Shown here: one piece after another, positions 27,780 through 64,000 of the stretch | Position numbering within the stretch: position 1 is the stretch's first letter | Layout: the number at the start of each line of letters is the position of its first letter | Assembly (NCBI GenBank): GCA_002633005.1 | Contig: NMRA01000907.1 | Coordinates: forward strand, 20,255 to 84,254 | Direction: 5' to 3' | DNA: 64,000 nucleotides | DNA from: Phoronis australis | Lineage: Eukaryota; Animalia; Phoronida | Made by a program: the position numbers and the translations under genes | Notes under the pieces: generated by a model | The model's database searches: none | Told to the model about the DNA's origin: nothing | Seen by the model: only the letters and a program-made list of their open reading frames with translations

Positions 27780-27887
27780 CATCATACTGTGCTGTCCCAT
27801 CATACTGTGCTGTCCCATCATACTGTGCTGTCCCATCATACTGTGCTGTCCCATCATACTGTGCTGTCCCATCATACTGTGCTGTCA
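27780..27887. repeat. 18-bp tandem repeat x6 (catcatactgtgctgtcc)
   Basis: Six adjacent, essentially perfect copies with no spacers. Confidence 0.95.
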
Positions 27888-30390: not shown

Positions 30391-30545
30391 AATCCAGTGG
30401 CTTGCTATGCGACCGCTGGTGGATGCGCTGTCTCAACTAAGTTCGTGTCTCATATTTCATGTCATAGGTATTGTTAGACCGAAAATTTATAAAAACTTTA
30501 ATTGATGCTCTTTTTTCAAACAGGGTTCTTCAGTTTGCTCTCAAC

Positions 30546-31583
30546 ATGACGTCATCCAGTCCTGATATTCTGAATGGGACAGTCGTTATTCAGGAACTCA
30601 ACCAGGAACTCATCGTCGCAGAATGCGTGATTATCTCTCTCTACATTTTAATAGGAACTCTGGGAAACCTTCTTATAATATTTGCCATTTTGATTCAAAA
30701 AGAAGTCCGCAAAAATGTTGGCAATGCCCTTATAATAAACCTGGCGCTATCCGATCTCCTTATGTCAGGATTTTTGTTGCCAATTTTGCTGGCCAATTCT
30801 CTGTCTAATTACGCTATCCTGACTGACAGCGCGCTCTGTGTTGTCGCGGACATTATCCAACGTTTCAGCATTGTCTTGTCTGCGTACAGCATGCCCCTTA
30901 TTGCTTTCAATCGATTCGTCAATATTTGCCGCAACAATATGTACGCAACATTATTTTCAAAGCGCCGTACGTTCTGCATGATAGTTGGATTGCACGTGTT
31001 CTCGGTAATTGCCACCATTTTAAGGTTGGTGAACTTCGGGAACAACAGAAAAGAACAGTCTTGCGAAATGAATGATAATAACAAGACATTCAACACAACA
31101 AGCACTGCCATAGTTGTTACCTTCGTACTCATACCATCATTGCTGACTAGTTTTTTTTACTTTCGAATTTTTATTAAAATTCGTAACAGCACGTTTGCCA
31201 CAGGACAGAGTCTTCACAAGAAAAAATCCATCAATACTTTGTTTCTGGTCTTTTCACTATACGTCATATCGTGGTCGCCACTGCTCGTGCGCATTCTTGT
31301 AGATCCGCGCGGCCTCTGGCCACGTGAAGCCCACAAAATCGTCATGTGGATTGGATTCTCTAATTCCTGCCTTAACAGTTTCATTTATGGATTAAGATCT
31401 CAACAGTTTCGTAAAGGATACATGCGAGTCCTTTGTTTCTGGAACAGTGCTCATCACCACGTCAACGCCATCCATCCCACGTCGTTGGAACTTGCGACTT
31501 CCTCGTACAACGTGTCGACGCTGCGCACTAGTGAAAAAGTGATGCCATTTGGTCCACCCTTAGAGTCCATTAGGCATGTTTAA
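30546..31583 (+). CDS. Class A (rhodopsin-like) GPCR, melatonin-receptor-like, single coding exon (~345 aa)
   Basis: Seven hydrophobic segments; N-terminal NGT sequon; TM1 GTLGN, TM2 NLALSD, TM3 AFNRF (NR replaces DRY), TM6 SWSP, TM7 NSCLNSFIYG, helix 8 QFRKGY. First ATG at 30546, preceded by a pyrimidine tract and cag acceptor at about 30523, implying a 5' UTR intron. Confidence 0.92.
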   Translation: MTSSSPDILNGTVVIQELNQELIVAECVIISLYILIGTLGNLLIIFAILIQKEVRKNVGNALIINLALSDLLMSGFLLPILLANSLSNYAILTDSALCVVADIIQRFSIVLSAYSMPLIAFNRFVNICRNNMYATLFSKRRTFCMIVGLHVFSVIATILRLVNFGNNRKEQSCEMNDNNKTFNTTSTAIVVTFVLIPSLLTSFFYFRIFIKIRNSTFATGQSLHKKKSINTLFLVFSLYVISWSPLLVRILVDPRGLWPREAHKIVMWIGFSNSCLNSFIYGLRSQQFRKGYMRVLCFWNSAHHHVNAIHPTSLELATSSYNVSTLRTSEKVMPFGPPLESIRHV

Positions 31584-40677: not shown

Positions 40678-41631
40678 TCAGGCTAACAAATTTTCACTGT
40701 TCAGTACAGTCGAATGAACTTTGTTCTTTTTGCAAAAGCAAAACACGTATCTACACGATTCTCTACAATGCCTGGATCGTAGACCGTACAAACAACCGTT
40801 TAGAAAAGCACTGGAATAGGCGCACCACATTACGACACGATGTGCAGATTGAGGCCATTCGCCGTTAGGATCCGCCACCGTCCGAGCAGTCATGGGGGCG
40901 AAGCAGACGACAAACAAGATTAACGCCATCGCTTGAGTACCAAATTCCTTTGACGCCTTGTGAAAACGATGGGGATCGCCGTCATCGCGCGACAACCGAG
41001 TTTTTACAATAATCAGTAGACTGCACGTAATTAATATAATACAAACAGATGTAAATCCCACAACCACTAAAATCAACGTTAAACTATCGATTTGTCTCCC
41101 GTTTTTACTTCCATAATTATCGCAAATCCCTGAAATTGGTAGCTTGTCTCGCCTGTAACCGCCAAAAGTTGTGAGCGCCACCAGTAACGAGCAGACAAAC
41201 GAGCACAGCAATAACACGGTCGTGTTTCTCCATGAAAACAGCTGGTCATAAAACACCTCATTCCATACTCTTACGCAGCGATTCACTGCCACTGCCGATG
41301 TCGTTAGAAAGGATAGCCCAACGCAGATGCGTAATATTATTTCACCTATAAAACACGGCGACGATTCGCCTAATAGTGCATAATTCGACAAAATGTTGCC
41401 CAGAAAGATTGGTAAAACTGTTGTTAACAGCAGAAGGTCCGACAGTGCTCGAACAAGTAGCAGAACTTTACCCGCCTTGCGACGTAACTCCTCGCGCAGA
41501 ATAATAACACCTACAACAACCACATTGGGAAGAAAGCCGACCGGAATGAGCATTGATAGAAAAACCTTTTCCGTAGCATTCAGAGCTGACGTCACGTTTT
41601 CGTAGCCATTGGAACTTCCACGGAGCACCAT
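40678..41631 (-). CDS. Class A GPCR, diverged paralog of the 30546 receptor (~317 aa)
   Basis: Seven TM segments; NVT/NAT sequons; ALSD, AVNRC, CFAP, FLNGCLYGLRS. Shares NYA.L..S..C and DP.G.WP..AH+.VMW with the other GPCR. ATG at 41631, preceded by a ttttccag acceptor at about 41657. Confidence 0.9.
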   Translation of the reverse strand: MVLRGSSNGYENVTSALNATEKVFLSMLIPVGFLPNVVVVGVIILREELRRKAGKVLLLVRALSDLLLLTTVLPIFLGNILSNYALLGESSPCFIGEIILRICVGLSFLTTSAVAVNRCVRVWNEVFYDQLFSWRNTTVLLLCSFVCSLLVALTTFGGYRRDKLPISGICDNYGSKNGRQIDSLTLILVVVGFTSVCIILITCSLLIIVKTRLSRDDGDPHRFHKASKEFGTQAMALILFVVCFAPMTARTVADPNGEWPQSAHRVVMWCAYSSAFLNGCLYGLRSRHCRESCRYVFCFCKKNKVHSTVLNSENLLA

Positions 41632-43572
41632 TGTTCTTTTTTGAGTCACGGTAATCCTGGAAAATTATGTAGTATGGCAATGAGGTACTCAAATGCGTGG
41701 AATGTTATTAACTCTACGTTATTGTTCTTAAGACTCTTAATAACATTTGGTTGCTGAACTCAGCAAAAAATTTCCTAAAAATGGTTCCAATCCCCTTGTG
41801 AATGGTAGACCAATGTGACTCGTTTTGAACAGAAGTAACTGTATTTTTGAGAGCAATGTGAAATAATTTTGACATTGTTTTTCGACCATTTGCTTTTCCA
41901 AGAAATTTTGTTAAAACACCCAACTAACCTGTTTTATTCACCTTTTCGCTCGTTACGTGTTCATTTCTCCCCGTTCTCTAGTTACAGCTGTGCTGACGAA
42001 TACTATTCGTGTACTTCAATGATGTCATCGCGCCCAGGTTTGATGTTGGTGGCGGATTCCAAGAAGTAGGAATTCAAACCGGACTTGCTCAACGTAACAG
42101 AAAGAAAACTCGTTGCAGACCGTTGTCCTCGGTTCAGCTGTGCTCTGCATCTACATGTGTTAATGATGCTTTCTCACGGCAGTTTTTGCCACGTATAGTA
42201 TTCATAGTGTAGTATCGGTATCTATATATATTGACATTCTTCCATCTGAAATCCATATTCATTGATCTGCGAAGTGCGATTAATTGATTATAGATCCGGA
42301 TTACCAGTGCCTAGTCGAGATGACAAATATTTGTACTTTAACTATAGGTATTGATGATCTCCGCTTAGACAACGTAGGCTTAACATGTTGGTTCACAGAA
42401 ATATTTGTTCGGTCACACTTCTAAACGCTTGCGTACGCGTCTGTTTGTGTTCAGACATTAGTTGACCAGTGTCCCTTGTGTGGCTCAATACCACATGTTT
42501 ACGAAAAAGCATTTATCGAGCTTATGAAAATAAGGCCTGGCCGTTCTATTTATTTGTACATCGGTTGAGTGCATCATGGCGATTTTGCAATGAATTCAAT
42601 CAATACAGTCGTTTCGTTTTAAAACAAATTCCTACACGCAAACATTGTTACTCCATTGAATGACACCCGCTATTACCTGTTCATTGGTCTACGTCTTCCA
42701 TTCCTTCTAGTTTCTCCAAAAATTAGTCATAAACTAATACCGATGACGGTCTGAGCTGCCGTTACTTTTATGAATAACTATAGCTACTGCTTTAAATTAC
42801 TGGGAGTAGACATCTCACCGAACACATGGTGTATCTTTCAACACGCCACAGATTTTTCAAAAGAAACTAAATTTAGCAAAATTCAAGTTTATATTTTATG
42901 GTTGCACAATAATAAAATGACCGCCAAGATGAATTACTTGGAAGTGGCTCAATTCTTTTATAAGCACAGGCAATTATACGAAGAGCTGAAATGTTCCTCA
43001 CTAGCTAAACAACAGCAGGATGCAAAAACACAATAGCATGTCATTCTGTCACACTAGCCAATTACAGAAGAGAATCTTTGCCAATAACGCAAGCTGCTTC
43101 ACATGAACTCCGTCCACCGTTAAATACCATATACAAATTCACAGGCACTTAAAATTAATATGTTCCTCGGTCACCACTGGCACGATCCACTGTAATAAAA
43201 CTTTGTTGCGGTGCGTCATTGAGAATATTCGTCGGCCTGTGTACAAATTGCACTACACGGAAACACTGCTCATTTTGATCACGCATGCATGCACGCATAC
43301 ACACATTAGGGCAAATAAGCACAGGCATATATACATGTGTTTAGTAATATGTAAATCTTATACAAAATGTTGTTATCACTTACACATTAACAGTTTGCTT
43401 ATATTGTATTCCGTGGAGTATATTGGATGTATAGCACTGACGTTATTTTCCTAAGGTGTCAGGTTTATGGTATTGATTCCATCAGTCTTCCAACGTTATG
43501 CATGGGAAATAAAAACTACATGTAGGCCTACAGTCTTTTATATTCTATTGCTCACTTGCATTGGATCGCATT

Positions 43573-47158: not shown

Positions 47159-50100
47159 CTGTAAGTATAACAATGTGACTTCAGTGGTAAATGACAGGTA
47201 AAAACATGTAACGTGTCGGTCACTGATGTAAGCAAACTATGACTGTCGATCATTGAAATAGTACAATATTCTAGTTACAAAAAAGGTTTAATTTTAAGAG
47301 TGTATTTAAAAGGCATAAAATACATAACTTGTTTCCAAGAGTTTAACTCATATGTCTATGCTCCCTTTTCCCTGAACTCAAGAGAACAACTGGCATGTTT
47401 AAATTCAGTGACATGGGTATTTTAAAAGCATTCAGCTGACAAATGTCCAGTAATCCTACCGTTATAAACCTCACCCTACAATGATCTATATAACTAGCCG
47501 AATTGGTTTTATTTAAAAATGGACAAAAGTATATTGTAGGTCACATTCCATTCATTCCGAATGACATAGTAAATGTTATCGTACCTTTTCTATATTTTGT
47601 GGCGATGTACAATCATAGTCAATAGTACACATCGTATCCAAAACTTTCCCATCGCCAACTGGATGTCCAACAAAATGAATATATCGCTGTGCATCAATAG
47701 TTGCAAACTCAGTAATAGGCGGCGGAAGTGGGCATTCACTGATCTTCAGACATCGATTGAAGGCTCTTGGAAGTGATGCCTCGAAATTGAGGTCTAAGAC
47801 GGCCACATCGAGGTCCTCGCAATGAGCCAATATGGCGCGGATAGGCGCTGCAACGACACCGTCCACTTGACGAGGCTTGTTAAAATGAAACAGAGCCACG
47901 TTATGCTCGGCTGTAAAATACACATTAGAAATGACCAACAAACAGTTCAGAGCTTATAGGTTGTTACATACTACCTAAACAAGCAGACTACAACCAAAAG
48001 ATTCTGTTACCCGATGATACATGACAGAAGCTGTTAGGGTGTAGTGTAACACTGTTTCATTTGTAATGGAAGTTGAAAAGTACAAATTGAAACATTGCTT
48101 TCTTGTCTCTTAGCTTCTAGTGGCTGTCAATTGTAAGGTGTATCAACTCATAATGCATTATAGAACGCACTAAATGACTCCAATTAATGTGCTATATAGA
48201 TTATCCCACATACATAGAAATACTACTGTCATACCCTATCCAGAATTCATTTCATCTGGGAATGTCCCGGATGAGATGTGTTGTTGTTGTGTGCTTTGGC
48301 TTGTTGTTACATGACGTCATATCCATGTCAAGCCTACCTGCGCCTGTACAGCGATAGGTGATCTGTGAGGCTTAACAGCTAGTTCAGTTTTATTTCATAT
48401 TGAATTGATAAGAACTTTCAGTTTTTGAGATGTTCAAGTTAAAAAGATGAATAATTCAATTATAAATGTTAGTCGGGAACTTTGAAACAATCTCTCCGGA
48501 AGTATAAAAGTTGATCAGTTTTGCTAGCAGCAGTTTGTCGCTTTAGCTTCGATGAATTTCGTAGTTTTCTAGGTCTATTTTCCTGTATTAGGTTATGAAA
48601 CAGAACTAGTATTAGAAATGTTTCCCCTTGATGCCTTGATGGCAGAACTGGAAAGTAACGGTGGACACTGTGCCGTGTTTGAGATATCAGGAAAGTATGT
48701 CAAAAAGCAGATTTTACGCTACCAGGAGAGCCGAGGAACGCTGCGAGCGCACGCTTGTGTCGGTAAAAAGGTGCATGTTCGATGTTAGGTATCATTTCTT
48801 TGTGATTATCTTAGCTCTCAGTGTACAGTAGATATACTGCACATAAATGCTTCCATAAGAAAACGTTTTCGTTCGATTTGACTGTGCTGTAATATTGTTT
48901 TTCAACCCACTCATGGAATATAAAAGGCACCAAATGACTCCACTTGAACGGCAAAAACCTGTTGGTCCTTTAAACAAGGAAAGGAATCAACAATTAGTCG
49001 AACATGGCGGACTTCAAAGCTAGTCGACTGGACTGCTAAACCAAATTGCCGGTGATCAAACCTGTTGTTCGAACTTCAAAACGGAATGGTTTCACCCAAA
49101 AAATAGTTGACTGGACCAAAAACAGGATGGCCGGTCCCATAACCAGTTGTCCAGAGATCAAACAGGACGGCTGACTTCCTCAGAGACTCCCATTTAATTC
49201 GTTCTCAAGGATTCAAGTGATATCTACTGTCTGTGCACCCGCCAGCCCGTTTTAGGTGTGTTCAACCATTTTTTGTGTGCCGCCATCTGGTTTTAAGGTC
49301 CAACCACCAGGTTAGAACAAGGGGAATTTTATTTTTCAGTCCTGCCAACTTGTTTCAAAGTCCAGGCAAGTGGTTTTGAAGTCTGGGCAAAGGGTTTTGA
49401 AGTCTGGACAAGTGGGTTTGAAGACTGGGCAAGTGGTTTTGAAGACTGGGCAAGTGGTTTTGAAGTCTGGGCAAGTGGTTTTTAAGTCCGGGCAAGTGAT
49501 TTTGTCCGACCATTTGTTGATTCCCCTCCTTGTTGAAGCTGCTTTCGCGCCCTGTTATCGAGTTAGATAAAAACGAAAATAGAATTAGGCATTGTATTCC
49601 CGTGAAGTCAGTGTCGTCAGATTATTTGCCGTGATAAAATTCTTTCTACTACAACGGAAAATATGGAAACCATTAGTGACCCAAGAAAACGCTTCCAACG
49701 TTATTAGAGTTGGCCTTATAGACATCACACAGACTGGGTGGGCAGAACACATGGAGCTCACCTTGTCAACGTATGACGCCATATTGGAAAGTGTGACACA
49801 AAACAAAAATGTCGCAAAACACTGAGACACCTACAACATCAGTCAGGAAATATCCGGGGCTCGATGTGTTACATGTATGCCTGCAGCCAAAGAGTTGAGT
49901 GTATTGGTCCTACCATTGAATCATAGCTTTTTGGTTCTGCCATAGAGTTTAGTGGTGCTGCTTAGGTTCTGTCACCGTAGTTTAACCAGTGTAACCATGC
50001 GTTGTTTCCACCCAAGTCTAGTCTTGTTGACTGAGATCATATCAAATCAATTTAAAAAATAATTATTGGCCAGCATATGATGTTATCGAATGTTGATGCT

Positions 50101-53100
50101 GTTTGTTAATTGTACTTAAGTAAATATGTGGTATTAATGACAATGATATGTTTTTACTTGTACTGAAAAACAGAATCTGCATCATGATGCCCGCCACTCA
50201 TCCAAATCAGTACATCTACGTGAGTAACATATTTTTATTGAAATACGTACTGCCTTAAAAACTCTTTCTGAATATATATTCCCTAATCAGATATTTTTAT
50301 GTTGTATAAAGGTAAATCCACAGTCTGTACTTATGTCGCACTACTTTGCTTGCCAACAGTTGTTTTGTGACTTAAAAACTGCGTAAAAAGTGCAAAGTAA
50401 CAAAACTAGCATACCTGCACAACTGAGCTGTGCACACGACTTATATTCAATTACGAAGAATTTTAAACTCGAAACCGAGTGGAAATATTTCCATCGGAGC
50501 CGGTGTTCATTAAACAATGACCCAGTGAAAAAAATGACTATGGGTATTTTTTTCAAGGGGTATAAATTCAATGTGAAGAATTTGCCACTCGTGAATATTA
50601 CGATCAAAAGTTGGAATATGGTACCGGTAAGCATGGCGCTACTAACACATAGTGTACACACAAGGTAATGCAACACAGTCACTGAATGTCCTGGCGCTCA
50701 CTTAAGACTGGCCTTCTAGTTAGATAAGTTATAACGTTGTTTATAAAAGTACCTGAACCCCAATAGTTTTAAAACAACAGATCGCTATACAGCTCTACAT
50801 TTTTATTTGTGAAAAAAATGCCTTAATTCAAACAATTGCAAGTTCGTACTTACGTTCATGACTAAGTTCTTTTAATACATGACAGTTTGTCATGATGTAA
50901 GTTGGACCAACACGGAACCCAGATCCCACTCCTGTCCCGTCTGCTCTTGCCAATAACGCTACAGATTGGAGAGCGTCAGAAAGAGACTTGTGTAAGTCCG
51001 CCCACATCACGTTCTTACCAGGAGCATGGAATTGTGTTGTTGAACCGGTTAATTGTGTCGGAGACTGTAGGAGTGGAAAGTAATCTGGAAAATATAGAGC
51101 TGGTTCATGTAGGAACTCTTACGCTGAAACTGGAATAGGAACAGGAATTATTTTATCAAATTTGACTCCTTCCTTAAACTTTACAATTACCTGACTGCCT
51201 GGTAACCACCTCCAGTATGTCCAAGTCGCCGTCGTTTCTCTTGTTTACAGTAATTGTGACCTGTCCCTTACCGACGGCGATGGTTTGGCCTTTTGAGTAG
51301 ACATAACGTTCGAGCATTGCACAAAACTGCTTTTCAGACGGGGCAGCCCTCGCCCCCAGACATTGATCGGATGAACCCGCAGTCGCATGGGGTCTCATTT
51401 CACCACCACACTGGACACTTTGCTCCATTTTTTTGGATCGACGAGTCTGTTCCATGTGTTGCTGGAGGTGACATTGTTAAATGTAAGTAATTGGCTATTT
51501 CACATGGATTGTAATCAATACACCTCAAAAGCTTTAAACAACATGCATCCCCAAGCACTACCTCAGGAAGTAAGTTTTTCACATGAAACCTCGTCAACTG
51601 AACTTCAAGGCCGCATGCGCAGTCGTGCAACTAGGTTTGAGTGTAGCAGTGGCCTCAGGTAACTCTCACCGAGTCGAAAGTTAACGAACTGAATTAGTTC
51701 TCGATGGTTCCCTGCGTGTCCGCAAGGGGGAAGAGAACTGCAGGTATTATTTAACAGTCCTCGGTAAAATTGATACACCTGGGTATTTGCCTTACACCTA
51801 AGTTAGTCTGGACGCAAGCTACGGAAACTTTGTCTCAGAAAGCACAGAAAGCAATTTTTTCAATTAAACGTTTCCAGTCAAAATGTGGACGACTTTCACC
51901 GAAAATTGCACTCGAGATTTTTGATAAAATGGTATACCCAATCATTAGCTATGGAAGTGAGATTTGGGGATTTAAAGAATACACTAGTATCGAGCGCGTT
52001 CAATTGAAATTCTGTAAGCAACTGCTGGGTGTTGGAAGTAACTGTCCAAATCATGCTGTCCTGGGAGAACTGGGAAGGTATCCAATTTATGTAAAGCTGT
52101 TTGTTAAACTGATCAAGTATTGGTTTAAATTGTTAAAAATGCCAGCACATCGAAATCCAAAATCTGTCTATGACAAGCTTGTCACATTGGATGAGGCTAG
52201 TAGGAAGAATTGGGCTTCATCTGTTAGGAATTTGCTGCAAAGGTATGGTTTTGATTTGGTATGGTACAATCAGGGAGTTGGCTGCGAAGCATCGTTTCTT
52301 GTCATTTTTGAGCAACGAATTAAAGATTGTTTTTTACAAGACTGGAGCTTTGCTGTGGAGAATAGCTCAAAACTTAATACGTATTTCTAATTTAAAATTA
52401 ATTTTGAAATGGAATCCTATCTGTTGCGTGATATTCCATATATCTTTTTAGCAGCTATGGCTAAATTACGTTTCTCCAACCACAACTTGATGATAGAGAA
52501 AGGTAGACATACTCTCGTGGACCAAAAAATACCGTGTGTGTTGTTTCTGTGTGTCCCTAATTGAAGATGAATACCATTTTATATGTGTTTGTAAAATGTA
52601 CTGGTCTCTGAGAACTGCATTTATACCCGAGTGGTGCTGGCGAGAACCAAATCAACATAAATTTGTAAAACTTATAAAAATGTCGGAGCCCATTGCTCAG
52701 ATTAATCTAATGAAATTTGTATTTCACGCCACTGCTCTCAGGGAAAAACTGCTCAGCGTTATCCTGTAAATTTCATGTAACATGTGGGCCAAGGCCTTAA
52801 ATGTTGAAATACATGAATTTATTTATAAAAGTATTATGTAGTGATATTGAATATAACCGACACCCTACATTGTATTCACCGTGGCCCCGACTTTCGTCAG
52901 CGTTTTGTTTCGTTCCCTTTTCATTATAAATCCGTCATGAGGTGTGTGGTCTAGCTCCGTCTGGCGATTTTTCAAGTTACTAAACTAAACGCCTGAACCC
53001 TGTGCATAGGGTTTTAGATGTGGCATGGTTTACTAAAACGCTTATTTTTACGTGTATACATGAGATTTTATTTTGGCGGTTTGATCGTAGCAATATTAAT

Positions 53101-56100
53101 GAGGGCCAATATTGACAACATGGTCGAGATATCAACAAAAACAACCAGAGTTATTAACAATGGTGAAATCCTCTGTGTACATGTATAACAAGTATCATAA
53201 AATGTTTTATTACTGTACCTTAAGGAGTTTCTTTATTGATTCCTCTTTACAGACATCGTAAGCAGTTCTTCCATCCTGTAAAATAGGTAATTAAATTCAT
53301 ATTAAAATTGACATTAAGTTTAAGTCAAAACTCCACTACACAAAACACGTGACCTCCATGCATATGTATTATAGATACAGGTAAAGTTCATACATTTTGC
53401 CGTTTGTGCGAGATTTCATAGTTTGGAAGTTGAGACAACTCTTAGGCTTAAGTGAAAAATAAACTTAAAACTGTTTCTTGGAGAGTCCAGGTTGTGAACC
53501 ACTATATGTTCATGTCATCCATTTTGATGAGTTGTAAACAAAGCGTATGAATCTAATAAGGATGTTGAAAATTGATTATCAGCTACAGAGTGATGTCATC
53601 AACTGGACCCAACACACACTCCGCAGCTTTTTCTGTTGTGTTTAAAAATATTTTTCAAGAGGCTCAACTCTCCTTCGCGTGGAGGATAGTTGGGCACCTA
53701 GTCAAGGAGAGTTGAGCTCACGGTTTCCTACAGCTTTGTATAACATGCACGATTCTTAATGAGCAGTTATGAAGAAAAAATGCTCTGCTGCTTTTGTCTT
53801 TAGCTTTTCACCCTTGAGTGTAAATGAAACTTGCTGAGTAACATTAACTAATTATATTTTGCTATATACGTCACAAAAAGTGACTAAACTTTTATCTTTC
53901 CGATTTCGTTTATAGTTGTAAATCTTACAGATACATGTAGCATAGTTTGCCAACAAATTCTTCCAAAACTGGCCAAGAATTGTATGGTGACACATGGCAT
54001 ACCTCCCCGCCAACTGGTGGTTTAGTAGCTGAGACAGCTATATTACAAACCCAGCACAATTAATGGGAAAAAATAATGTGGCAATATTTTACAATAATGT
54101 TAGGTTGCAAGTCACAATTCTTGCCTTATTTTGAAAATTCCAAAACCTGACCACGTACACATTTTACGAACTATTCCGCTGCTATTTAAGCACTGTCAAA
54201 ACGAACATTTTTGTCGCCACCAGTGTGTTAGTGATGAGTCTAATTATCTAGTGACTGATAACAACATCAGGCTGTGGCGTCCAGGCCGATGTAACTGCCT
54301 GCAACTGCATTGCGTCTTTGATCTGATCTTCAGACTTTACGTTACATACACCGGTCGAGTCGCCCAGCCTCGCCCGGTGAAAATAATCTGTTCACTTGGG
54401 ATTCCTTTCACAAAGAAACTGCATCATCCGTTGTGCAATCGCATTAAAAGTAAGGCACCGGGTTACACAACTTTGAGAGAAATAATTGAAATGCCAAGTA
54501 ATTTGTCAAGGCTTTTTCTTGTCAAGTAAACATTCCAATCACTTAATTATCACCATTTATGAAAATGGTTGACTTTTTCACNGTGTGTGTGTGTATATGT
54601 ATCAATCCGTGGCAGAAATATACACAGTTCTGTAGTAGGGTTAAAAATAAACCACAGGGTTATAACACTGAAAATTGTTAAATAACCACTGCACAACAGA
54701 GAAACATAACTTAAAAACCATAAACAGACTTTCTAAATACAGGCTTGCACAGTCATGATTAAAAACCTGTGCATTTTATAATAATTGAAAAGAGAAAATC
54801 TAAACTTGTGCCTGGTGTAGGCGACTGTACGGCGTTGTTGGTCTGTTCTTAGTTTGTGTAGCCATAATACGATGAATGTTTTCAGTCAGCCAGTTGGGTC
54901 ATAGTATAAGAATCAATAAATCCATTACTGGACTTTCGGTACGTGGAGATGGCTACGTTGCGTCCTCCTCTCGAGGACTTCATCAGGCCACTGAGTTGTC
55001 ACGTGAATTGTCATGTGATCTGTCGTACAGTTTCCGCGGGATTCTCTCCAGTGCCCTATCCCATGTCCTAGGTAAGTGAAAACCGCCTGTCTATTGAGGC
55101 TAGGATTCTCAATATTCTTGTAGATAGCTTCTTTGACCCCTCTCCAAAACCAATTCTCTTCTCTATCCAGGATCTTCACATCTTGCATGGCGAAAGAGTG
55201 TTCTGTGGAATCCATGTGACTTAAGACTGCAGAACCATAGCAGTCCCCATAACTGGACCTCCGATGCTGGTTGAAACGACTTTTCAGGGCTTGTTTGGTT
55301 TCCCCAATATATGCTGCTCCACATCCCGGTTCCGAGCATGAAATGCCATACACCACATTTGATGTTTTCTCTTTGCTGGTTTTGTCTTTCACATTTAACA
55401 ATTCACTCCTTATGGTGTTAAGAGCAATGTCGTGTCCTCTCATATGTGATTTGATCTGGTCAGCGATCCCTGGCACAAAAGGCAATGTTATCCTGATGTT
55501 TCCCCTATTATCAGGCTGCGTGTTCTGAGGCCTGACTCTGTCATGGTTTGCCTTGTGGAATGACCAGTTCGGGTAGCCACATCTTTTCAACACTGTTCTG
55601 TTGTGTTCTATTTCAAAATCAATGTCCTGCTCAGTGTTGGAGATGGTTCTCGCTCGATAGGCCAACGTTCTAATCACGCCTAGTTTGTGAATCAACGGGT
55701 GATTGGAGTCAAACGGAAGATAGTAGTCCATGTGAGTGGGCTTCCTATAAACCTTGGTCTTGAAATGCTTGTCTGTAACAGTCACTAAACAATCCAGGAA
55801 CGGTAAAGTTTTTAGTCACATGAATTCCACAGAACACTCTTTCGCCATGCAAGATGTGAAGATCCTGGATAGAGAAGAGAATTGGTTTCGGAGAGGGGTC
55901 AAAGAAGCTATCTACGAGAGAATTGAGAATCCTAGCCTCAATAAACAGGGGGGCTAGGGTTTCACTTACCGAGGACATGGGATAGGGCGCTGAAGAGAAT
56001 CCCGCGGAAACTGTACGACAGATCACATGACAAGTCACGTGACAACTCAGTGGCCTGATGAAGTCCTCGAGAGGAGGACGCAACGTAGCCATCTCCGCGT

Positions 56101-59100
56101 ACTGTATGTCCAGTAATAGATTTATTGATACTTATACTTTGTGTAGCAATGTTACGATCAAGCCAGTGACTTTTATTTTACTGAGTGCTCTGGGAAGGTA
56201 CATGCAATAAGGAAACGACTGCTTGTATAGGTTCACGTAAGAGGTAGATCATTTTTGATGAGATATATATGTTAAATGAATAATTCTTCGAACTCGTTGT
56301 TCATTTAAAACACATTTATTGCAGTATGAATTAAAGACGGAGTACAACACTCTCTACGCAGTCACAGCGGCCTTTAATGATTTGAAGCTTCACAACCGCT
56401 GCGTGTCCAACCTCTGACGCCATGTGTAGCGGTGTGTCACCCCACTACAGCAAGTGAACAAACATGCCGGGGGGATTGTTGGTCAGCATTACATATACAA
56501 TAGCGAAATGCGTGGCTCAACAGGGCTTCACGTTTTATATTTTTCAAGTTCAAAACTTCACCATCAGTTGCATATTGATGACGTGGGTGGATCCACAGTG
56601 TGTGACTACAACCTAACATTTAAACTAGCACACAACTTGAGCGACATTCCTTAAATGTTCGTCTGATGTGTTGTAGCCGCGCATTGAAAAGATAATTTAA
56701 ATTATACCACAATATTAGCTTCGAATGGCAGATACAACCGTGAAGTAACCCATAAAGTTATCTCACTAGTGAGATAACATTTTGGCGGGAAACCGAGGCC
56801 GGGCCTCAACAGTTGCGAGCCGCGCAATAATCGCATGTTCAGCAAAGAGCATTACACCGACAATTATACTCTATGAAAAATAAGACGCATAATTTCCATA
56901 AAAACGATATTTTAATACAGTGAAATTTCTCTCTCGTGTTCTCTCACTTGTAAATCACCGACCTCCAATTTGAATGCAGGTGTCGTGTGGTCGGGATCCC
57001 TTGACTTGAGCATTATAGTCAGTTACTAGTGGTAACCTACTTTAGCAGACGATATATTCCCGGTCCAAGCTTAGCGTGATAAAATGTGTAGTAAGCTATA
57101 ACAGTTGCTAAACCGTAATTTACAGATTAACTTTCTTTCTATTTTGTTTTATTTTTCAATTAGTTTTGAGTAAAAACATTATTTTACAAAAATATCTCGT
57201 CTTTTCTTAAAAGGTCACGACCTGCGACCCTGGGCCTCTGACATAGAAAGTAGTTACAAAGCCGAGGCGAGTCGAGAAAGGTAGATTGATTCATTGCATT
57301 GTTTCTCGTTCAGTATGTGGTATAAATAGATTATTACATGTTCTCAGTCGTTATCCCCCTTATATAGAGCCCTCGTGGATTTTGTAGAATTATCACCCTC
57401 GGAGCTAACGCCCCTCGGGCGATAATTCTCCAAAATCAACTCGGGCTGTAGATAACGGGGGATAACGACTTCGCCATGTAATAATCTATATATATGACAA
57501 CTTGATGTTATACATAACAACAGAGCGACATTGATTTAGTGAGCACTGTGGAAATGCAAGTAAATAACAAACTCATTGTACAACTCCATGTCACCTGAAA
57601 ACCGTTTTTAATTACTTCAAAATCACGTGCTCGTCACGTCACGTGCACGTCACGAGGAGTGTAAGGAAATGTCAAGTTTACAATAAAATCATTTATCCTG
57701 ATGAATTTATTAAAACACCGAATGATTCAGACTTGTCACATCTTGTATGTTGATCATCGTTGTGTAAACAACTAGTTCAACTAAACACCCTGTGTGTCAT
57801 TAATTACCTCATCGCGGACACTCACGTTGGCCCCGTGTTGGAGGAGACTCTGCACGACGGCTGTACGACCCCACAATGATGCCCGGTGCAGCAGTGTCCG
57901 GCCATCCTATGTAATATATAATGGAGATGTGTGAATGGACGACCAACGTTTAGAGCTAATTAACATACACGGGAGAAAGTGAACTTGTAAGGTGACATCA
58001 ATGAAACATCACTGACCCCTCTAAGGTGCTAATACTTGTAATGATGTCAACAGAGAAATGTTAAGTTTAAGAACAAAACAACAGAACCTGGTTAGTGTTT
58101 CGTTTCTTCTTACTGGACGGTAACACGGGTAGTAATTGTGCGCTGTAACGTGTTGAACAACCTCCAGTGTAACGTATGGTTTGGTCTAACGAATTAGGAG
58201 TATTTTAATTAAGTTATGGGACATTTTACATGTACATGTAAGTCACGATGCATTATCTCTTCCAGTCTACACAGCTTTAGCGGTTCATGAACAGAAAGCA
58301 GACGACATTTAATTTGACATTGTTTAGGAACATTAAATTGTGAAAATATCAACAAAATTTGTGCCTGTCAGTTTTAAACATTGTTTATGCAAACAACTAG
58401 ATCAACCAAATAACCTGTGTGTCATTAATTACCTGACCACGGACATCCACTGTGGCGCTGTGTTCAACTAGACACTCCACTATCTGTGTATGACCATACT
58501 GTGCTGCCCAGTGCAGCGGTGTCTGGCCCGACTATGTAATATATAATGGAGATGTGTGAATGGACGATCAACGTTTAGAGCTAATTAACATACACGGGGG
58601 AAAGTGAACTTGTAAGGAGGCATGAATGAAACATTACTGACCCCTCTAAGGTGCTAATACTTGTAATGATGTCAACAAGGAAATGTTAAGTTTAAGAACA
58701 AAACAACAGAACCTGGTTAGTGTTTCGTTTCTCCTTGCTGGACGAAAACACCGGTAGTAATTATGCGCTGTAACATGTTAGACAACCCCAGTGCAATGTA
58801 TGTTTTTGTCTAACGAATTAGGAGTATTTTAATTAAGTTATGTGACATTTTACCTGTACATGAAAGCCACGCTGCATTATCTCTACAAGTCCACGCAGCT
58901 TTAGCGGTTCATGAACGGAAAGCAGACGACATTTATTTTGACATTGTTTAGAGGGAACAATAAATTGTGAAAAGATCAACAAAATTTGTCCCTCATCAGT
59001 TTTAAACATTGTTTGTGTAAACAAGTAGATCAACCCAATAACCTGTGTGTCATTAATTACCTTATCACAGACATTCACTGTGGCGCTGTGTTCAACTATA

Positions 59101-62100
59101 CACTTCACTATCTGTGTATGACCATACTCTGCTGCCCAGTGCAGCGGTGTCCGGCCCATCTATGTAATATATAATGGAGATGTGTGAATGGACGATCAAC
59201 GTTTAGAGCTAATTAACATACACGGGAGAAAGTGAACTTGTAAGGTGACATAAATGAAACATCAGTGACCCCTCTAAGATGCTAATACTTGTAATGATGT
59301 CAACAGGGAAATGTCAAGTGCAAGAACAAAACAACAGAACCTGGTTAGTGTTTCGTTTCTTCTTACTGGACAATAACACGGGTAGTAATTGTGCGCTGTA
59401 ACGGGTTGAACAACATCCAGTGTAATGTATGGTTTGGTCTAACGAATTAGGAGTATTTTAATTAAGTTATGTGACATTTTACCTGTACATGTAAGTCACG
59501 ATGCATTGTCTCTACCAGTCTACACAGGTTTAATTAGCGGTTCATGAACAGAAAGCAGACGACATTTAATTTGACATTGTTTAGGAACATTAAATTGTGA
59601 AAATATCAACAAAATTTGTCCCTGTCAGTTTTAAAAATTGTTTATGCAAACAACTAGATCAACCAAATAACCTGTGTGTCATTAATTACCTGATCACGGA
59701 CATCCACTGTGGCGCTGTGTTCAAATAGACACTCCACTATCTGTGTATGACCACACAGTGCTGCACGGTGCAGCGGTGTCCAGCCCTCCTATGTAATATA
59801 TAATGGAGATGTGTGAATGGACGATCAACGTTTAGAGCTAATTAACATACACGGGGGAAAGTGAACTTGTAAGGAGACATGAATGAAACATTACTGACCC
59901 CTCTAAGGTGCTAATACTTGTAATGATGTCAACAGGGAAATGTCAAGTTTAAGAACAAAACAACAGAACCTGGTTAGTGTATCGTTTCTTCTTACTGGAC
60001 GGTAAAACGGGTAGTAATTGTGCGCTCTAACTTGTTCAACAACCTCCAGTGTAATGTATGGTTTGTTCTAACGAATTAGGAGTATTATAATTAAGTTATG
60101 TGACATTTTACCTGCACATGTAAGTCACGATGCATTATCTCTACCAGTCTACACAGCTTTAGCTGTTCATGAACGGAAAGCAGACGACATTTAATTTGAC
60201 AATGTTTAGGAACATTAAATTGTGAAAATATCAACAAAATTTGTCCCTGTCAGTCTTAAAGATTGTTTATGCAAACAACTAGATCAACCAAACAACCTGT
60301 GTGTCATTAATTACCTGATCACGGACATCCACTGTGGCGCTGTGTTGAACTAGACACTTCACTATCTGTGTATAACCTAACTGTGCTGCGCAGTGCAGCG
60401 GTGTCCAGCCCTCCTATGTAATATATAATGGAGATGTGTGAATGGACGATCAACGTTTAGAGCTAATTAACATACACGGGGGAAAGTGAACTTGTAAGGA
60501 GACATGAATGAAACATTACTGACCCCTCTAAGGTGCTAATACTTGTAATGATGTCAACAGGGAAATGTTAAGTTTAAGAACAAAACAACAGAACCTGGTT
60601 AGTGTTTCGTTTCTCCTTGCTGGACGAAAACACCAGTAGTAATTATGCGCTGTAACATGTTAGACAACCCAGTGTAATGTATGTTTTAGTCTAACGAATT
60701 AGGAGTATTTTAATTAAGTTATGTGACATTTTACCTGTACAAGAAAGTCACGCTGCATTATCTCTACAAGTCCACGCAGCTTTAGCGGTTCATGAACGGA
60801 AAGCAGACGACATTTATTTTGACATTGTTTAGGGACATTAAATTGTGAAAATATCAACAAAATTTTGTCCCTGTCAGTTTTAAACATTGTTTATGCAAAC
60901 AACTAGATCAACCCAAAAACATGTGTGTCATTAATTACCTTATCACAGACATTCACTGTGGCGCTGTGTTCAACTAGACACTCCACTGTCTGTGTACGAC
61001 CCCACAGTGCTGCACAGTGCAGCGGTGTCAGGCCCTCCTATGTAATATATAATGGAGATGTGTGAATGGACGATCAACGTTTAGAGCTAATTAACATACA
61101 CGGGGAAAGTTAACTTGTAAGGTGACATTAATGAAACATCACTGACACATCTAAGACACTAAAATACCTGCAATGAGTTCAACTCAAGTTTTACAGGTGA
61201 TTCGAAAACGTTGAAACAACAACAGAACATTTTGCAGACGTGGACTGCCAGAAGTTTGCTGAACGCCTCCATAATTCACAGAGACCCCTCCAGGTTGTGT
61301 TTATACTGGCTTCCTATTTAATATAATGTTGTAATATTGAAAGGGCGATTGTCATTAAGAATAGAAAGGTATCAACGTTGAGTCGGCAAAGATATTGTTG
61401 ATAGGATTCAAATCTCAGTGCTTCTCAAGATGCATGTACCGCGTACAGAATGAAAAATACATGTCGAAGTCAGGAGAGATAAAATATGTATTTACACAAA
61501 ACATATTTAGTTAAATTTTAGATAGCATACAGTGTTTGTAAAGTGGTCTGAATTAGTTTCTATTACCACGTCTTGCATGTCTACATCGGCCCCACCCTGT
61601 AACAATAACCTCGCCACCTCTGTGCTGCCCCGCCATGCTGCTTGGTGTAGTAGGGCCTTGCGGTCCTGTAGAAACAATGAACAAGTTATAGCAAGACTCA
61701 CAATCACTAACTTTACCGTGCATCTTAATTACTAACAACCAAAACTTTGAACTTGCACATAAAATTATCAAAGCTACTCCCTGTTTAAGAGGTAATATAA
61801 CAGTCGTGGTTAGAATAGAATTCTCAGAGTGAAGACACGGATGTTCTTTTATAATATGAACACTTTTATCAAAATCCGAGCAACTGGTTGTAGCTAAGAC
61901 TAACTATCATAGTTATTGACAAAAACGTGACCTTGATATTCACACAGAATAATCAACTTTAAGAGAACGATTTCACCAGCTACACCAGCTACACGGGACG
62001 AAATGAAGCTGACCGAGAAATCATTTTTGTTAAAAATATGAGGTAATAGGCGACAGCATTGAAGCAAGATGCTTAGTACATGAGAGATGAGAGAACATCA

Positions 62101-62665
62101 ATACAAGGTTAATATATCAGAATGGGATATCAAAATATTTCAGGAAAAAAATCGCTTGGTCAATCTTTGGTTTAGGGTGCATTAATAGTTGGGATCATAG
62201 CCACTGGAAAAACACTACAAATTAAACACATGTTGAAACACATTTTACCAAAACCTTTTTTGATCAAGATCTCTGTTCAGTGGATCAATCAATCATGTAG
62301 TTTCCATTTCGACACAAATCCAAACAGTCAGTTGTTCTGCTGCACTGAGACTTGATAAACGACGAAGGAGTGGTCGGCCAGACGAAGCTTGCTATTAAAA
62401 AGAGGGCTTTGCCGGCCAGTTTTCACGTGTACACGCGATCAATTGATACATTTGCCTGTTCTTGGATTTATTTAAAGGGGCATTTCCTATTCGTAAGAAA
62501 CTAATTAAAGTCCTTGTCTAACGCGTTGTTAACCCTTATTACATGGTTAGAAGATGTTATAAGGATCCAAGAAGTACCTACCCCATAACTAATACACGAT
62601 CCGTACTCGAAAACAGTTTAAATGAACGCGCCACTCACGATTCGCACCCGAAGAAACACCGCCAT
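46841..62665 (-). CDS. Multi-exon gene: ankyrin-repeat array plus FAM111-like trypsin-fold serine protease (~640 aa)
   Basis: Exons (minus strand, all GT-AG, frames compatible, no stops): 62639-62665 (tentative), 61567-61665, 60939-61037, 60315-60413, 59690-59788, 59061-59159, 58433-58531, 57808-57906, 53219-53275, 51191-51461, 50854-51084, 47585-47910, 46841-47158. Triad motifs TNCHV / DLDVAV / GSSGSP. Confidence 0.88.
47585..47910 (-). CDS. Protease exon with catalytic Asp
   Basis: ttttacag|cc acceptor (phase 1), aag|gtacga donor (phase 0); HCEDLDVAVLDL and IHFVGHPVGDGKVLDTMC (FAM111-type IGHP.G..K.ID.C). Confidence 0.9.
49320..49527. mobile_element. Small intronic MITE with AGGGGAAT...ATTCCCCT ends containing a 21-bp tandem array (gggcaagtggttttgaagtct, ~6-7 copies)
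   Basis: Inverted ends and tandem array (49364-49505) are directly visible. Confidence 0.7.
50854..51084 (-). CDS. Protease exon with catalytic His
   Basis: ttttccag|at acceptor, c|gtaagt donor, 231 nt, phase 1-1; QSVALLARADGTGVGSGFRVGPTYIMTNCHVL. Confidence 0.9.
51191..51461 (-). CDS. Linker exon
   Basis: cctccag|caa acceptor (phase 0), g|gtaatt donor (phase 1), 271 nt, open; QHMEQTRR...YVYSKGQTIAVGKGQVTITVNK...RQS. Confidence 0.75.
51770..52830 (+). mobile_element. 5'-truncated non-LTR retrotransposon (RTE-X-like) in an intron, antisense to the host gene
   Basis: FDKMVYPIISYGSEIWG...IERVQLKFCKQLLGV...VLGELGRYP; premature stop at 52390; then IEKGR..C.FC...IEDEYHFICVC..Y..LR (C-terminal Zn motif). 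Clade is tentative. Confidence 0.8.
53219..53275 (-). CDS. Ankyrin C-terminal cap exon (DGRTAYDVCKEESIKKLLK)
   Basis: ttttacag|gat and aag|gtacag; 57 nt, phase 0-0; typical terminal half-ankyrin GxTAxD...I..LL. Confidence 0.85.
54949..54991 (-). ncRNA. Minimal type I hammerhead-ribozyme-like motif (variant core), copy 1
   Basis: GUGGC-CUGAUGA-A-GUCCUC-gagag-GAGGAC-GCAA-CGUA-GCCAU; GCAA in place of canonical GAAA. Confidence 0.6.
56050..56092 (+). ncRNA. Minimal type I hammerhead-ribozyme-like motif (variant core), copy 2
   Basis: Same sequence as copy 1, in the inverted Penelope terminus. Confidence 0.6.
56702..57491 (+). mobile_element. Dispersed composite repeat, copy 2 (tRNA-like part largely missing, hairpin retained)
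   Basis: Collinear with 6219-7088; hairpin at 57326-57489. Confidence 0.85.
57808..57906 (-). CDS. Ankyrin exon 7: DGRTLLHRASLWGRTAVVQSLLQHGANVSVRDE
   Basis: 99 nt, tag| and |gtaatt, phase 0. Confidence 0.9.
58433..58531 (-). CDS. Ankyrin exon 6: SGQTPLHWAAQYGHTQIVECLVEHSATVDVRGQ
   Basis: 99 nt, AG/GT, phase 0. Confidence 0.92.
59061..59159 (-). CDS. Ankyrin exon 5: MGRTPLHWAAEYGHTQIVKCIVEHSATVNVCDK
   Basis: 99 nt, AG/GT, phase 0; also visible in the ORF track. Confidence 0.92.
59690..59788 (-). CDS. Ankyrin exon 4: EGWTPLHRAALCGHTQIVECLFEHSATVDVRDQ
   Basis: 99 nt, AG/GT, phase 0. Confidence 0.92.
60315..60413 (-). CDS. Ankyrin exon 3: EGWTPLHCAAQLGYTQIVKCLVQHSATVDVRDQ
   Basis: 99 nt, AG/GT, phase 0. 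Confidence 0.92.
60939..61037 (-). CDS. Ankyrin exon 2: EGLTPLHCAALWGRTQTVECLVEHSATVNVCDK
   Basis: 99 nt, AG/GT, phase 0. Confidence 0.92.
61567..61665 (-). CDS. Ankyrin exon 1 (N-cap-like): DRKALLHQAAWRGSTEVARLLLQGGADVDMQDV
   Basis: tttctacag|gac and gtg|gtaata; 99 nt, phase 0; unique flanks. Confidence 0.9.
62639..62665 (-). CDS. Candidate first coding exon MAVFLRVRI
   Basis: aATGGcg start, 9 codons, then a consensus GTGAGT donor in phase 0, compatible with ankyrin exon 1; next to an N, so tentative. Confidence 0.4.
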
Positions 62666-62725
62666 TNTTACAAGGAAAAAATGGCGGCGTTCAGGACAAG
62701 TTCCTGAACTGATGAGCCGGAAATG
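62659..62725. promoter_or_regulatory. Back-to-back YY1-like (AAAATGGCGG) motifs plus an ETS-like CCGGAAAT; possible promoter
   Basis: ccgccattn...aaaatggcggc and gccggaaat in a locally CpG-richer patch; motif match only. Confidence 0.3.
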
Positions 62726-64000
62726 TGGGTACGGAAATAACCGATGACAACCGGTAATCATACGCTCAGAGAGAAGGGTCAAATACTGTTAAAAAATCGC
62801 TTTTGGCAAGAAAGGCGAAAAGAATATAAAGAAAGGGTGTCGAAAATAAGAATTTATGTAGTAAGTATTTTCGGATACTAGAACCACATGGGCAGTTTGC
62901 AACAAGGACTTTAAAGATACCATGACCAATCTTATCAAAACTGATTGCATTTTTAGTTGTTTTTTTTGGCACTCGTTTCGTCCTCTTTTCACGCGCAGGC
63001 CGTCTGCATGTTGTGTTTCGACATGGATATAATTTTCTATGTTGTTACTGAAAGTTTGAAACGATCGATTTTCATAATAATAAATTTAACAGAATCGTAC
63101 AAGCACTGAGAAATAAAAGAAAAACATAAAAACGCAAGGCAACAAAATAAAAATACAAGTGCAAGACACGGATAACATAAAAAGTCAAAGACTCATTTCC
63201 ATTATGCCGCTAATTTGTCTTATCCAACATTTTGTTTTAGATCATGGTGATAAAAAGTAAAGGTTAAAAGTGAGGTGTCAAAGAACTCCATATGTAACGG
63301 AACGACTACGACAGCTTTTATGACAAGCAACCAAGGAGTAAAAAATAAAACATCTTCAGCATTAGCTTCTTTTAGATTCTTCATCACAAGCAGCTTATAT
63401 TACGGTTACTTGGACAAAAATAGAAAAAGACTCACTGATACGTTGAAAATATGACGAGTAGTATTCAAATAATGAACAATATCATAACAGTAAAACAGGA
63501 TCAATCCCTAAAATAATAATAACATATCGTACACCAAAACATTTGTTTGGATGAAAACTATCTAAATAAAAACTTCAGTAGTCATTAAAATTTCTCCCTC
63601 GTACAAAAAGTCCCGAATACGTCTAATAATAGAAAAGCTCTGGAAATCAGACATTCATTTTTACATTAACACTGAAATAAAAACGACTCCTCATGATGAA
63701 GATCCAGCAAACGTCATTGTGGTCGTTTAGAGAAATATATATTATTCAGTTGGCAACGTATCATTGACGTTTAGAAGAGCTTAACTGACCAATCAGAACG
63801 CAGTATTCCTGACGCACCTTCGTCTGCGTTTCCAAGCCGCCATGGTACCCGACAAACAACACGTTGTCGGTAAAGCTTATTTTCGTCTATAGCTCAAGAA
63901 ATTGTGCGATAAGAATGGTGAAACGGTGTTGAGATGGCGTGTGTAATTCTCACACAGTCGTTATACACCTCGAGAAGGATATCCCGTCACTTTTTGTGCA

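Follow-up and report, generated by a model that had tools for sequence, protein, structure and literature searches.

A hypervariable ankyrin-exon array in Phoronis australis, probably joined to a putative trypsin-like protease

Results and discussion

The window analysed is a stretch of 64,000 nt from contig NMRA01000907.1 of Phoronis australis. It contains an ankyrin array of five 99-nt exons on the minus strand, A1 (60939-61037), A2 (60315-60413), A3 (59690-59788), A4 (59061-59159) and A5 (58433-58531), all in phase 0 and bounded by AG/GT. The array has a period of about 625 nt, and self-BLAST and intron alignment placed the tandem repeat of exon and intron at 57760-61183. The five introns of the repeat units are 525-530 nt long and 3.8-9.0% different when aligned; duplication in tandem acted on exon-plus-intron units. 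The exons are 67-79% identical in amino acids (mean 72%) and 86-91% in nucleotides in pairwise comparison, and none of the five contains a stop or an indel. The Pfam Ank (PF00023) cut-off was passed by all five exons scanned, namely A1, A5 and the exons A0, A6 and A7 described below. A structure model of one repeat had helices at residues 5-11 and 15-25 (pLDDT 68), burial not being visible in a model of a single repeat. No inverted repeats were found in the introns, ankyrin matches occurring on the coding strand only. A mosaic test within the array, on one haplotype, was not significant (P 0.22), and a scan of metagenome contigs for the intron motif gave two loci that share just 21 bases, a chance match. 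The introns also contain three pieces of mobile elements.

The array belongs to a larger gene, extending from 46841 to at least 61665 and read throughout on the minus strand. The flanking diverged ankyrin exons, a short cap, a linker and three protease exons had been missed by the original prediction. Upstream, A0 (61567-61665; AG/GT, 99 nt, Pfam Ank E 2.8e-7) is a diverged ankyrin exon (pS about 0.7 against A1-A5) and likely the N-terminal cap; its junction with A1 is predicted from the exon model. A candidate first coding exon of nine codons, from ATG to a GTGAGT donor in phase 0 (62639-62665), is predicted only. Beside it there is an N in the sequence at 62667. Downstream, the last full ankyrin exon, A6 (57808-57906), has 27-32 differences from A1-A5, with pN about equal to pS, yet its flanks are homogenised. 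It is followed by A7 (56288-56444; Pfam Ank E 3.8e-5), an ankyrin-like exon whose reading frame meets a stop at 56331-56333, with AATAAA at 56315-56320; it is likely to be an alternative last exon or a relic. A7 appears frame-shifted relative to the ankyrin consensus.

A 57-nt exon at 53219-53275 (AG/GT, phase 0, with stranded RNA) is likely the C-terminal ankyrin cap, a half repeat whose ankyrin likeness was judged by eye and was not detected by the profile. The linker exon of 90 codons (51191-51461) follows, and then protease exons P1 (50854-51084, His motif NCH), P2 (47585-47910, Asp motif DVAVL and GHP) and P3 (46841-47158, Ser motif GSSGSP and stop). P3 was placed by its AG acceptor, a fitting phase and a frame open to the stop, and the P2-P3 junction is predicted only. 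The exon model has 640 residues, is open without an internal stop and has a maximum hydropathy of 1.1; it would encode a single chain with neither signal peptide nor membrane segment. No NACHT, NB-ARC, NOD or ROC-COR domain was found in this model, which consists of ankyrins, linker and protease from the exons of the window.

RNA was compared as three raw-read runs (X10, X11 and X12) and one set of contigs (X6). A search of sequencing runs listed no RNA run as a carrier of the sequence, the best share being 0.25, and the DNA runs and marine-metagenome entry it gave were left out of the analysis. Most reads are 80-95% alike to the window and therefore report on relatives of this locus. Head-to-tail ankyrin joints, in which back-step and inserted letters add up to 99, were found in stranded RNA on the strand of the gene. 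The expectation that the exons are transcribed is thus borne out at the level of the family, which is transcribed and spliced. Short reads collapse onto one array unit, and the stranded depth of 150-550 at A5 is summed over all family copies. The junction letters give additional residues at codons 1, 3, 32 and 33, and the GGC of codon 2 is kept in the four junction forms that span it.

Joints between cap and linker were seen in X10, X12 and X6, and the linker-P1 joint (51084/51191) in X10 (5 reads), X12 (3) and also X6. An RNA loose end at 50854 resembles the start of P2. The connection to the ankyrins comes from one near-identical X6 contig, whose end behind 53277 has 39 loose letters; of these, 30 were compared and 29 match A6 at 57810-57839. 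An X6 contig covers the linker with two differences, and the lengths 56 + 271 + 59 + 39 equal the 425 nt of the record, suggesting that one and the same record spans the end of A6, the cap, the linker and P1. A6, cap, linker and P1 are joined in RNA, the A6-cap link through a single contig. In X10, 31 reads continue behind the cap; their consensus is mixed (agreement 0.65) and differs from A6, so other family members carry different sequence at this place. Among the 15 of 60 joints listed, none links A5 to A6 or A6 to A7. RNA ends pile up at the end of A7, 56288, in X10, X11 and X12 (5, 6 and 16 molecules) with the stop kept as TAG; these reads differ from the window at many fixed positions and therefore come from relatives.

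The exons P1-P3 are likely to be a trypsin-like protease, judging by motifs, Pfam and the Atlas. In scans of single exons P1 matched Trypsin_2 (PF13365) below threshold (E 0.0017, 19.5 bits against a cut-off of 27.6) and P2 and P3 gave no match. The first Atlas matches of P1 and P2 both scored 0.91, that of P1 being in a serine-protease cluster and that of P2 in one with Trypsin and Trypsin_2 on 25% and 10% of its members. The His, Asp and Ser motifs are in the correct order with spacings of 43 and 109, consistent with an active His-Asp-Ser protease. Around GHP and after the serine motif there is what we take to be a likeness to FAM111. A PDB search with P1 and P3 gave no protease match. Homologue searches, weak with exon-sized queries, gave none among 215 candidates for P2, none among 188 for P1 and none in 1.84 billion representatives for P3; nor did such single-exon queries, again weak by size, match FAM111A, FAM111B or FAM111A-like proteins. 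With A5 as query five generic ankyrin proteins were obtained (44-52% identity), none with a protease domain, and phage tblastn with P1 gave four rows at chance level (E 0.7).

Comparison of A1-A5 showed the array to vary as originally described: 15 of 33 codons are variable and all 18 invariant codons have identical nucleotides in the five copies. The exons at 58433 and 60315 do differ at 11 nt in eight codons, all nonsynonymous, and the sole directly synonymous difference is indeed TGT/TGC at codon 8. The predicted concentration of variation at codons 1, 3, 8, 11, 12 and 14 holds in that each has at least three residues, but nine more codons (17, 19, 21, 22, 23, 29, 31, 32 and 33) also vary, by one nonsynonymous change each. 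Mean pN is 0.146 against a pS of 0.021, with p of 0.038-0.090 in the introns.

The further claim that synonymous sites are frozen did not survive. None of 13 fourfold-degenerate third positions varies, and of about 23 synonymous sites one does. In the introns 69 of 524 columns vary, which gives P 0.34 by Fisher's test and P 0.17 by a binomial test, or P 0.078 when the rate is taken from the middle of the intron and transitions are weighted. The part of the intron beside the acceptor shows as little change (2 variable columns of 70, against 66 of 434, P 0.002). Special freezing was rejected, the observed quietness being within the chance range of the intron rate (P 0.08-0.34).

The duplicated introns provide a built-in neutral clock, which makes the test for selection unusually clean. 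In the register used, which we take to place G4 at codon 2, the exons were checked against DARPin alignments. The positions randomised in DARPins, 2, 3, 5, 13, 14 and 33, were taken from PMC8248824. The predicted match to them stood: all six are variable (P 0.0045). Their 18 sites have undergone at least 15 changes (a tree-free minimum), where the introns predict 2.6; under five settings of rate heterogeneity, none of the 20,000 neutral simulations run for each reached that count. Codon 8 corresponds to DARPin position 10, in the available text of PMC8248824 a framework position that contacts the target. An in-house site model preferred M2a over M1a (LRT 48) and assigned 21% of codons an omega of about 15; such models are inflated by conversion, and the sample is small (five copies, one haplotype). 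The remaining 79% have omega about 1, i.e. there is no purifying signal in the framework. The LRT was 31-41 with a free exon scale or the CpG rate raised 5- to 10-fold. The site model, the comparison with the intron rate and the simulations agree with the binding-face diversification originally proposed, and diversifying selection on the putative binding-face codons is supported.

It has to be asked whether a young, relaxed duplication could mimic this result through hot spots (CpG decay, multi-base changes or conversion from paralogues). The framework omega of about 1, the apparent frame shift of A7 and the mobile-element pieces agree with it. Eight of 16 CpG columns are variable and five exon columns are pure CpG transitions; non-CpG columns vary overall no more in the exon (13 of 83) than in the intron (61 of 493), and intron variation is also clumped (top-six sum up to 13, against 18 in the exon). 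Against it, the synonymous CpG sites at codons 5 and 25 are both constant, CpG observed/expected in the window is 0.84, the LRT is still 36 at a 10-fold CpG rate and the five exons are free of stops and indels. The excess at the pre-chosen DARPin positions survives CpG and hot-spot controls, and CpG decay as sole cause was rejected. Relaxed duplication is already disfavoured and is the least probable of the explanations considered.

As the exons vary mainly at binding positions and the adjoining ankyrin exon is spliced to protease exons, the gene is likely to encode a fast-diversifying intracellular defence protease. More exactly, there is about an even chance that A1-A5 form the variable central part of an ankyrin stack, joined via cap and linker to an intracellular trypsin-like protease as its fast-diversifying recognition arm. 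The ankyrin arm would bind a foreign protein, possibly a pathogen protein, and thereby direct or activate the protease. Unequal crossing-over or conversion would keep the units alike while selection kept the binding residues different. Ankyrin-only transcripts ending at an A7-like exon might serve as decoys or brakes. The name "sensor" given to the array fits a variable binding arm, but since the array is joined to a protease it covers only half of the protein.

Three other functions were considered for the array. The ankyrin face may change for escape: the stack would then keep the protease inactive or attach to a host partner, under pressure from inhibitors or mimics made by pathogens. In RNase L, among other enzymes, ankyrin stacks have an autoinhibitory role. 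The selection signal would be identical, and FAM111A is inhibited by a viral serpin in the available text of PMC11847056. Change is spread across five adjacent repeats at canonical concave binding positions, a pattern more readily explained by a search for new specificities than by escape at a single epitope, and we regard escape as unlikely, if the least so of these alternatives. Slightly less probable is that the array is mostly made as an ankyrin-only adaptor or decoy ending at A7, the protease form being minor or from other family members. The stop and AATAAA after A7, the RNA ends at 56288 in all three raw-read runs and the mixed X10 consensus upstream of the cap speak for this; the A7 reads, much diverged from the window, the absence of X6 contigs on A7 and the skipping of A7 in the contig closest to this allele (two linker differences) speak against it. 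Allorecognition or gamete recognition within the species, executed by the protease, is more doubtful again. Podospora het-d/het-e, the best-studied repeats of this type, act there according to the available text of PMC13449251, but the model has no signal peptide or membrane segment and no tie to fusion or fertilisation arose in this analysis.

Beyond the preferred reading of a protease with a diversifying recognition arm, we tentatively suggest, as a less probable extension, an animal family of re-aimable defence proteases. In these, exon-cassette ankyrin stacks, resembling a natural DARPin library, would directly determine which foreign protein is cleaved by, or activates, an intracellular trypsin-like protease, without a NOD/GTPase switch, and ankyrin-only isoforms would tune the response. 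In the texts available, FAM111A is an intracellular Trypsin_2 protease and antiviral restriction factor (PMC9798293), and bacterial counter-invader systems use trypsin-like peptidases as effectors (PMC8195603). The combination of ankyrins with a trypsin-like protease was not found in the literature searched; the supplements of PMC4986451 and Fig. 8c of PMC13449251 could hold similar proteins. A search for FAM111, ankyrin and invertebrates matched, in the text available, a poxvirus review only. If the reading is correct, it would provide invertebrate intracellular immunity with a minimal sensor-effector design, FAM111-like antiviral proteases with a possible ancestral context and re-targetable proteases with a natural template.

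Comparison with known systems

Hypervariable near-identical repeats are rare in animals, making up 0.8% of metazoan ANK/TPR/WD repeats in the available text of PMC4986451. They are known as sensors in fungal NLRs and algal receptors; here they appear to be wired directly to a protease. The likeness to both systems noted originally was upheld. In fungal HIC-repeat NLRs, too, the repeats are near-identical, positive selection falls on about five positions of the concave surface (inner helix and hairpin), the chain also contains an enzyme effector and mobile elements lie nearby; positive selection on the concave binding face is likewise indicated here by the codon comparisons. Their criterion is more than 85% identity over at least 100 residues; here identity was computed pairwise rather than as T-REKS similarity, giving 67-79% (amino acid) and 86-91% (nucleotide). 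Unlike them, the modelled gene has no NACHT or NB-ARC, on which ground NLR family membership was rejected; its repeats are N-terminal, one per exon and co-duplicated with the intron, and the predicted effector is a trypsin-like protease.

The ROCO-LRR and NB-ARC-TPR candidate receptors of Ectocarpus, in the available text of PMC3341825, likewise have each repeat on its own exon, show positive selection of the concave face and include additional, possibly inactive repeat exons. The present repeats are ankyrin rather than LRR or TPR, and no inverted repeats were found in their introns; ROCO family membership was rejected, the exon model containing no ROC-COR or NB-ARC.

FAM111A/B and invertebrate FAM111A-like proteins, as described in the available text of PMC9798293, have an intracellular C-terminal Trypsin_2-type domain with a His-Asp-Ser triad, predicted here from motifs; the spacing is 54 and 102 in FAM111A, and 43 and 109 here. 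The two ubiquitin-like domains of vertebrate FAM111 and the mammalian PIP box have no counterpart in the exon model, the N-terminus being ankyrin with only the 90-residue linker left, although invertebrate FAM111A-like members also lack ubiquitin-like domains. The word "ankyrin" is absent from the available text of that review, and the gene differs from FAM111 in its N-terminal hypervariable ankyrin stack; the single-exon queries, weak by size, gave no match to FAM111 proteins.

A parallel in the arrangement of the arm itself is offered by DARPins, which in the available texts of PMC8248824, PMC8229355 and PMC6796971 also consist of a cap, near-identical internal modules and a cap, with variation at positions 2, 3, 5, 13, 14 and 33. 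The phoronid stack differs in being natural, in its five internal modules, in extra variation at positions 10 and 16 and in its predicted fusion to an enzyme.

Results

Five 99-nt phase-0 exons on the minus strand, each encoding one ankyrin repeat, run from A1 (60939-61037) to A5 (58433-58531) with a repeat period of about 625 nt. Differences among them fall in 21 of 99 columns, affecting 15 of 33 codons; mean pN is 0.146 against a pS of 0.021. The original prediction described this variation accurately: 18 framework codons are the same in all five copies, with none of 13 fourfold-degenerate third positions varying, the sole directly synonymous difference is TGT/TGC at codon 8, and A2 and A5 differ at 11 nt over 8 codons, every change being nonsynonymous. 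Diverged ankyrin exons A0 (61567-61665) and A6 (57808-57906) flank the array on the same strand, and A7 (56444 downwards, also minus) reads into a stop and AATAAA. Between A6 and A1-A5 there are 27-32 nucleotide differences, with pN equal to pS; as the flanks of A6 are as similar as those of other units, the exon itself seems to have resisted homogenisation.

The introns duplicated along with the array units served as the neutral baseline. They differ pairwise by 3.8-9.0%, 69 of 524 columns being variable. Relative to this rate the synonymous sites of A1-A5 showed no significant deficit (P 0.34 and 0.17; 0.078 in the most favourable setting) and the intron beside the acceptor is itself quiet (2 of 70 columns variable), so the earlier claim that synonymous sites are 'frozen' cannot be counted as a finding.

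Nonsynonymous sites of A1-A5 exceed the intron baseline (20/76, P 0.005). DARPin positions 2, 3, 5, 13, 14 and 33 were taken to be codons 33, 1, 3, 11, 12 and 31 here. This register is consistent with DARPin alignments. All six positions vary in A1-A5 (P 0.0045). Their 18 sites require at least 15 changes where 2.6 would be expected, and none of 20,000 neutral simulations came up to 15 under any of five rate-heterogeneity settings. That these are the positions randomised in DARPin libraries is stated in PMC8248824. The 27 codons outside those originally singled out (1, 3, 8, 11, 12 and 14) have a minimum of 9 changes against 11.6 expected, and the post hoc top-six sum of 18 was reached by at most 0.09% of neutral simulations. 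A purpose-made codon site model, run on the intron tree, favoured placing about 21% of codons in a class of omega 13-15, with an LRT of 36-48, or 31-32 when the exon scale was left free; these values are to be read with the inflation of site models by conversion and the five array copies in mind. The posterior for this class was at least 0.97 at codons 1, 8, 11 and 12, 0.72-1.0 at codon 3 and at most 0.58 at codon 14.

RNA was aligned to 56200-58560 and 50780-53400. On the ankyrin stretch, stranded depth in three raw-read runs was 150-550 on A5 and 20-70 on A6. Joints that back-step by 85-98 with 1-14 intervening letters, totalling 99, show head-to-tail splicing of ankyrin exons. Most reads are only 80-95% alike to the window and so derive from alleles and paralogues, and their junction letters encode residues at codons 1, 3, 32 and 33 absent from the window. 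Transcription and splicing were observed for the family. No A5-A6 or A6-A7 joint was among the 15 of 60 joints listed. RNA ends cluster at 56288, which is 27 nt beyond AATAAA, and A7 reads continue through the stop, which they show as TAG, so ankyrin-only transcripts are made by relatives. Stranded depth of 50-150 was also seen over 57907-58030, the most conserved section and 3' end of the repeated intron, with mid-intron near zero; it may reflect intron retention, a splicing element or, in a relative, an exon further upstream.

Downstream of A7, in fitting phase on the minus strand, lie a cap-like exon (57 nt), a linker exon (271 nt) and three putative protease exons, P1-P3, with motifs NCH, DVAVL/GHP and GSSGSP. 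The exon model is open over 640 residues and has no hydrophobic segment. P1 matches Trypsin_2 below the Pfam threshold, and the top matches of P1 and P2 in the protein-cluster resource Atlas, at 0.91, are among trypsin-like clusters. Protein databases gave no sequence relative of P1, P2 or P3, nor did the PDB for P1 or P3, which is weak evidence as the queries were exon-sized.

On 50780-53400 one strand transcribes cap, linker and P1 alike. Cap-linker and linker-P1 joints occur in two raw-read runs (X10, X12) and in the contig set X6, classed as RNA by guess but with joints that do coincide with splice sites; letters that run on past P1 look like the first part of P2. One X6 contig passes from the cap into A6 at its 3' end, with 29 of 30 letters matching, and skips A7; the single mismatch is a difference fixed in all reads on 56200-58560. 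X6 record 3 (425 nt, two differences across the linker) is exactly as long as P1 piece, linker, cap and A6-matching loose end together, and is thus inferred to be this contig, close to the window allele. Upstream of the cap X10 is mixed, with a consensus that differs from A6. Five X10 reads show a 57-nt back-step at 53218-53274, pointing to a tandem cap-exon duplicate in some relative, and in X12 some 50% of reads have 6 nt inserted in frame within the linker (51332-51333), indicating that the linker differs among family members.

The introns of the gene hold other elements. A Penelope-like retroelement piece (54900-56141; GIY-YIG match, E 0.0015; 335-nt inverted terminal copy) sits between A7 and the cap, and a LINE-like reverse-transcriptase fragment, recognised by eye with no Pfam match, lies on the plus strand between cap and linker (51700-52810). 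An element of about 680 nt with internal inverted repeats has two copies (88%), at 6219-7092 and, within the A6-A7 intron, at 56702-57496; its RNA depth of 100-400 on both strands shows a high-copy family. An opposed pair of AAAATGGCGG-like motifs and CCGGAA motifs, of the type found in promoter/start regions, lies at 62630-62740, which may be the start of the ankyrin-protease gene and of a divergent gene. Elsewhere are two intronless rhodopsin-family GPCR genes (Pfam 7tm_1; 30468-31583, plus, and 40678-41664, minus), dispersed direct repeats of 79-94% identity that are likely mobile elements (1005-2881/28390-30381 and 18662-19477/19921-20765) and tandem arrays of an 18-mer (x5.9, 100%; 27780-27886) and a 21-mer (x7, 87%; 49358-49504). 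The GT-AG introns and the two receptor genes point to an animal host.

Discussion

The data show that exons and introns were duplicated together in tandem, that amino-acid change is in excess at the binding face, that the family is expressed in spliced form and that ankyrin exons are spliced to protease exons; the exon-cassette array is a well-supported, real case of diversifying selection of a known kind. For its function, we give about even odds to the ankyrin stack serving as a recognition arm of the protease, directed at a protein that keeps changing and is probably foreign. Unequal exchange would keep the units similar while selection holds their contact residues apart; the stack would form a single concave surface for the changing protein, whose binding would present it to the protease or release the enzyme, and ankyrin-only forms would compete.

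Four other readings are each unlikely. The strongest is that ankyrin change reflects escape from inhibitors; a function of the ankyrin part by itself, to be set beside both the ankyrin-only transcripts of relatives and the cap-A6 joint, is slightly less probable, and allorecognition a shade less again. Least probable is relaxed duplication with hot spots. Counted against selection are the fit of the remaining codons to omega of about 1 in the codon model, pure CpG transitions in five exon columns, and non-CpG columns varying at 13/83 in exons against 61/493 in introns; on the other side stands the excess at the DARPin positions.

The recognition-arm reading invites comparison with known systems. 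The array works like the ANK repeats with high internal conservation in fungal NLRs, in which five concave-face positions are under selection (PMC4986451, PMC13449251), and like the Ectocarpus receptors, with which it shares one repeat per exon (PMC3341825). The predicted likeness holds for repeat behaviour and not for kinship: the modelled gene has no NACHT, NB-ARC or ROC-COR domain, so membership of either family was rejected. What is new is an ankyrin array joined directly to a trypsin-like protease, an architecture of which no description was found in the article texts searched. The protease part is reminiscent of FAM111A, described in PMC9798293 as a restriction factor of the Trypsin_2 type that is intracellular and has invertebrate relatives without the ubiquitin-like domains; this is a likeness and not an assignment to FAM111.
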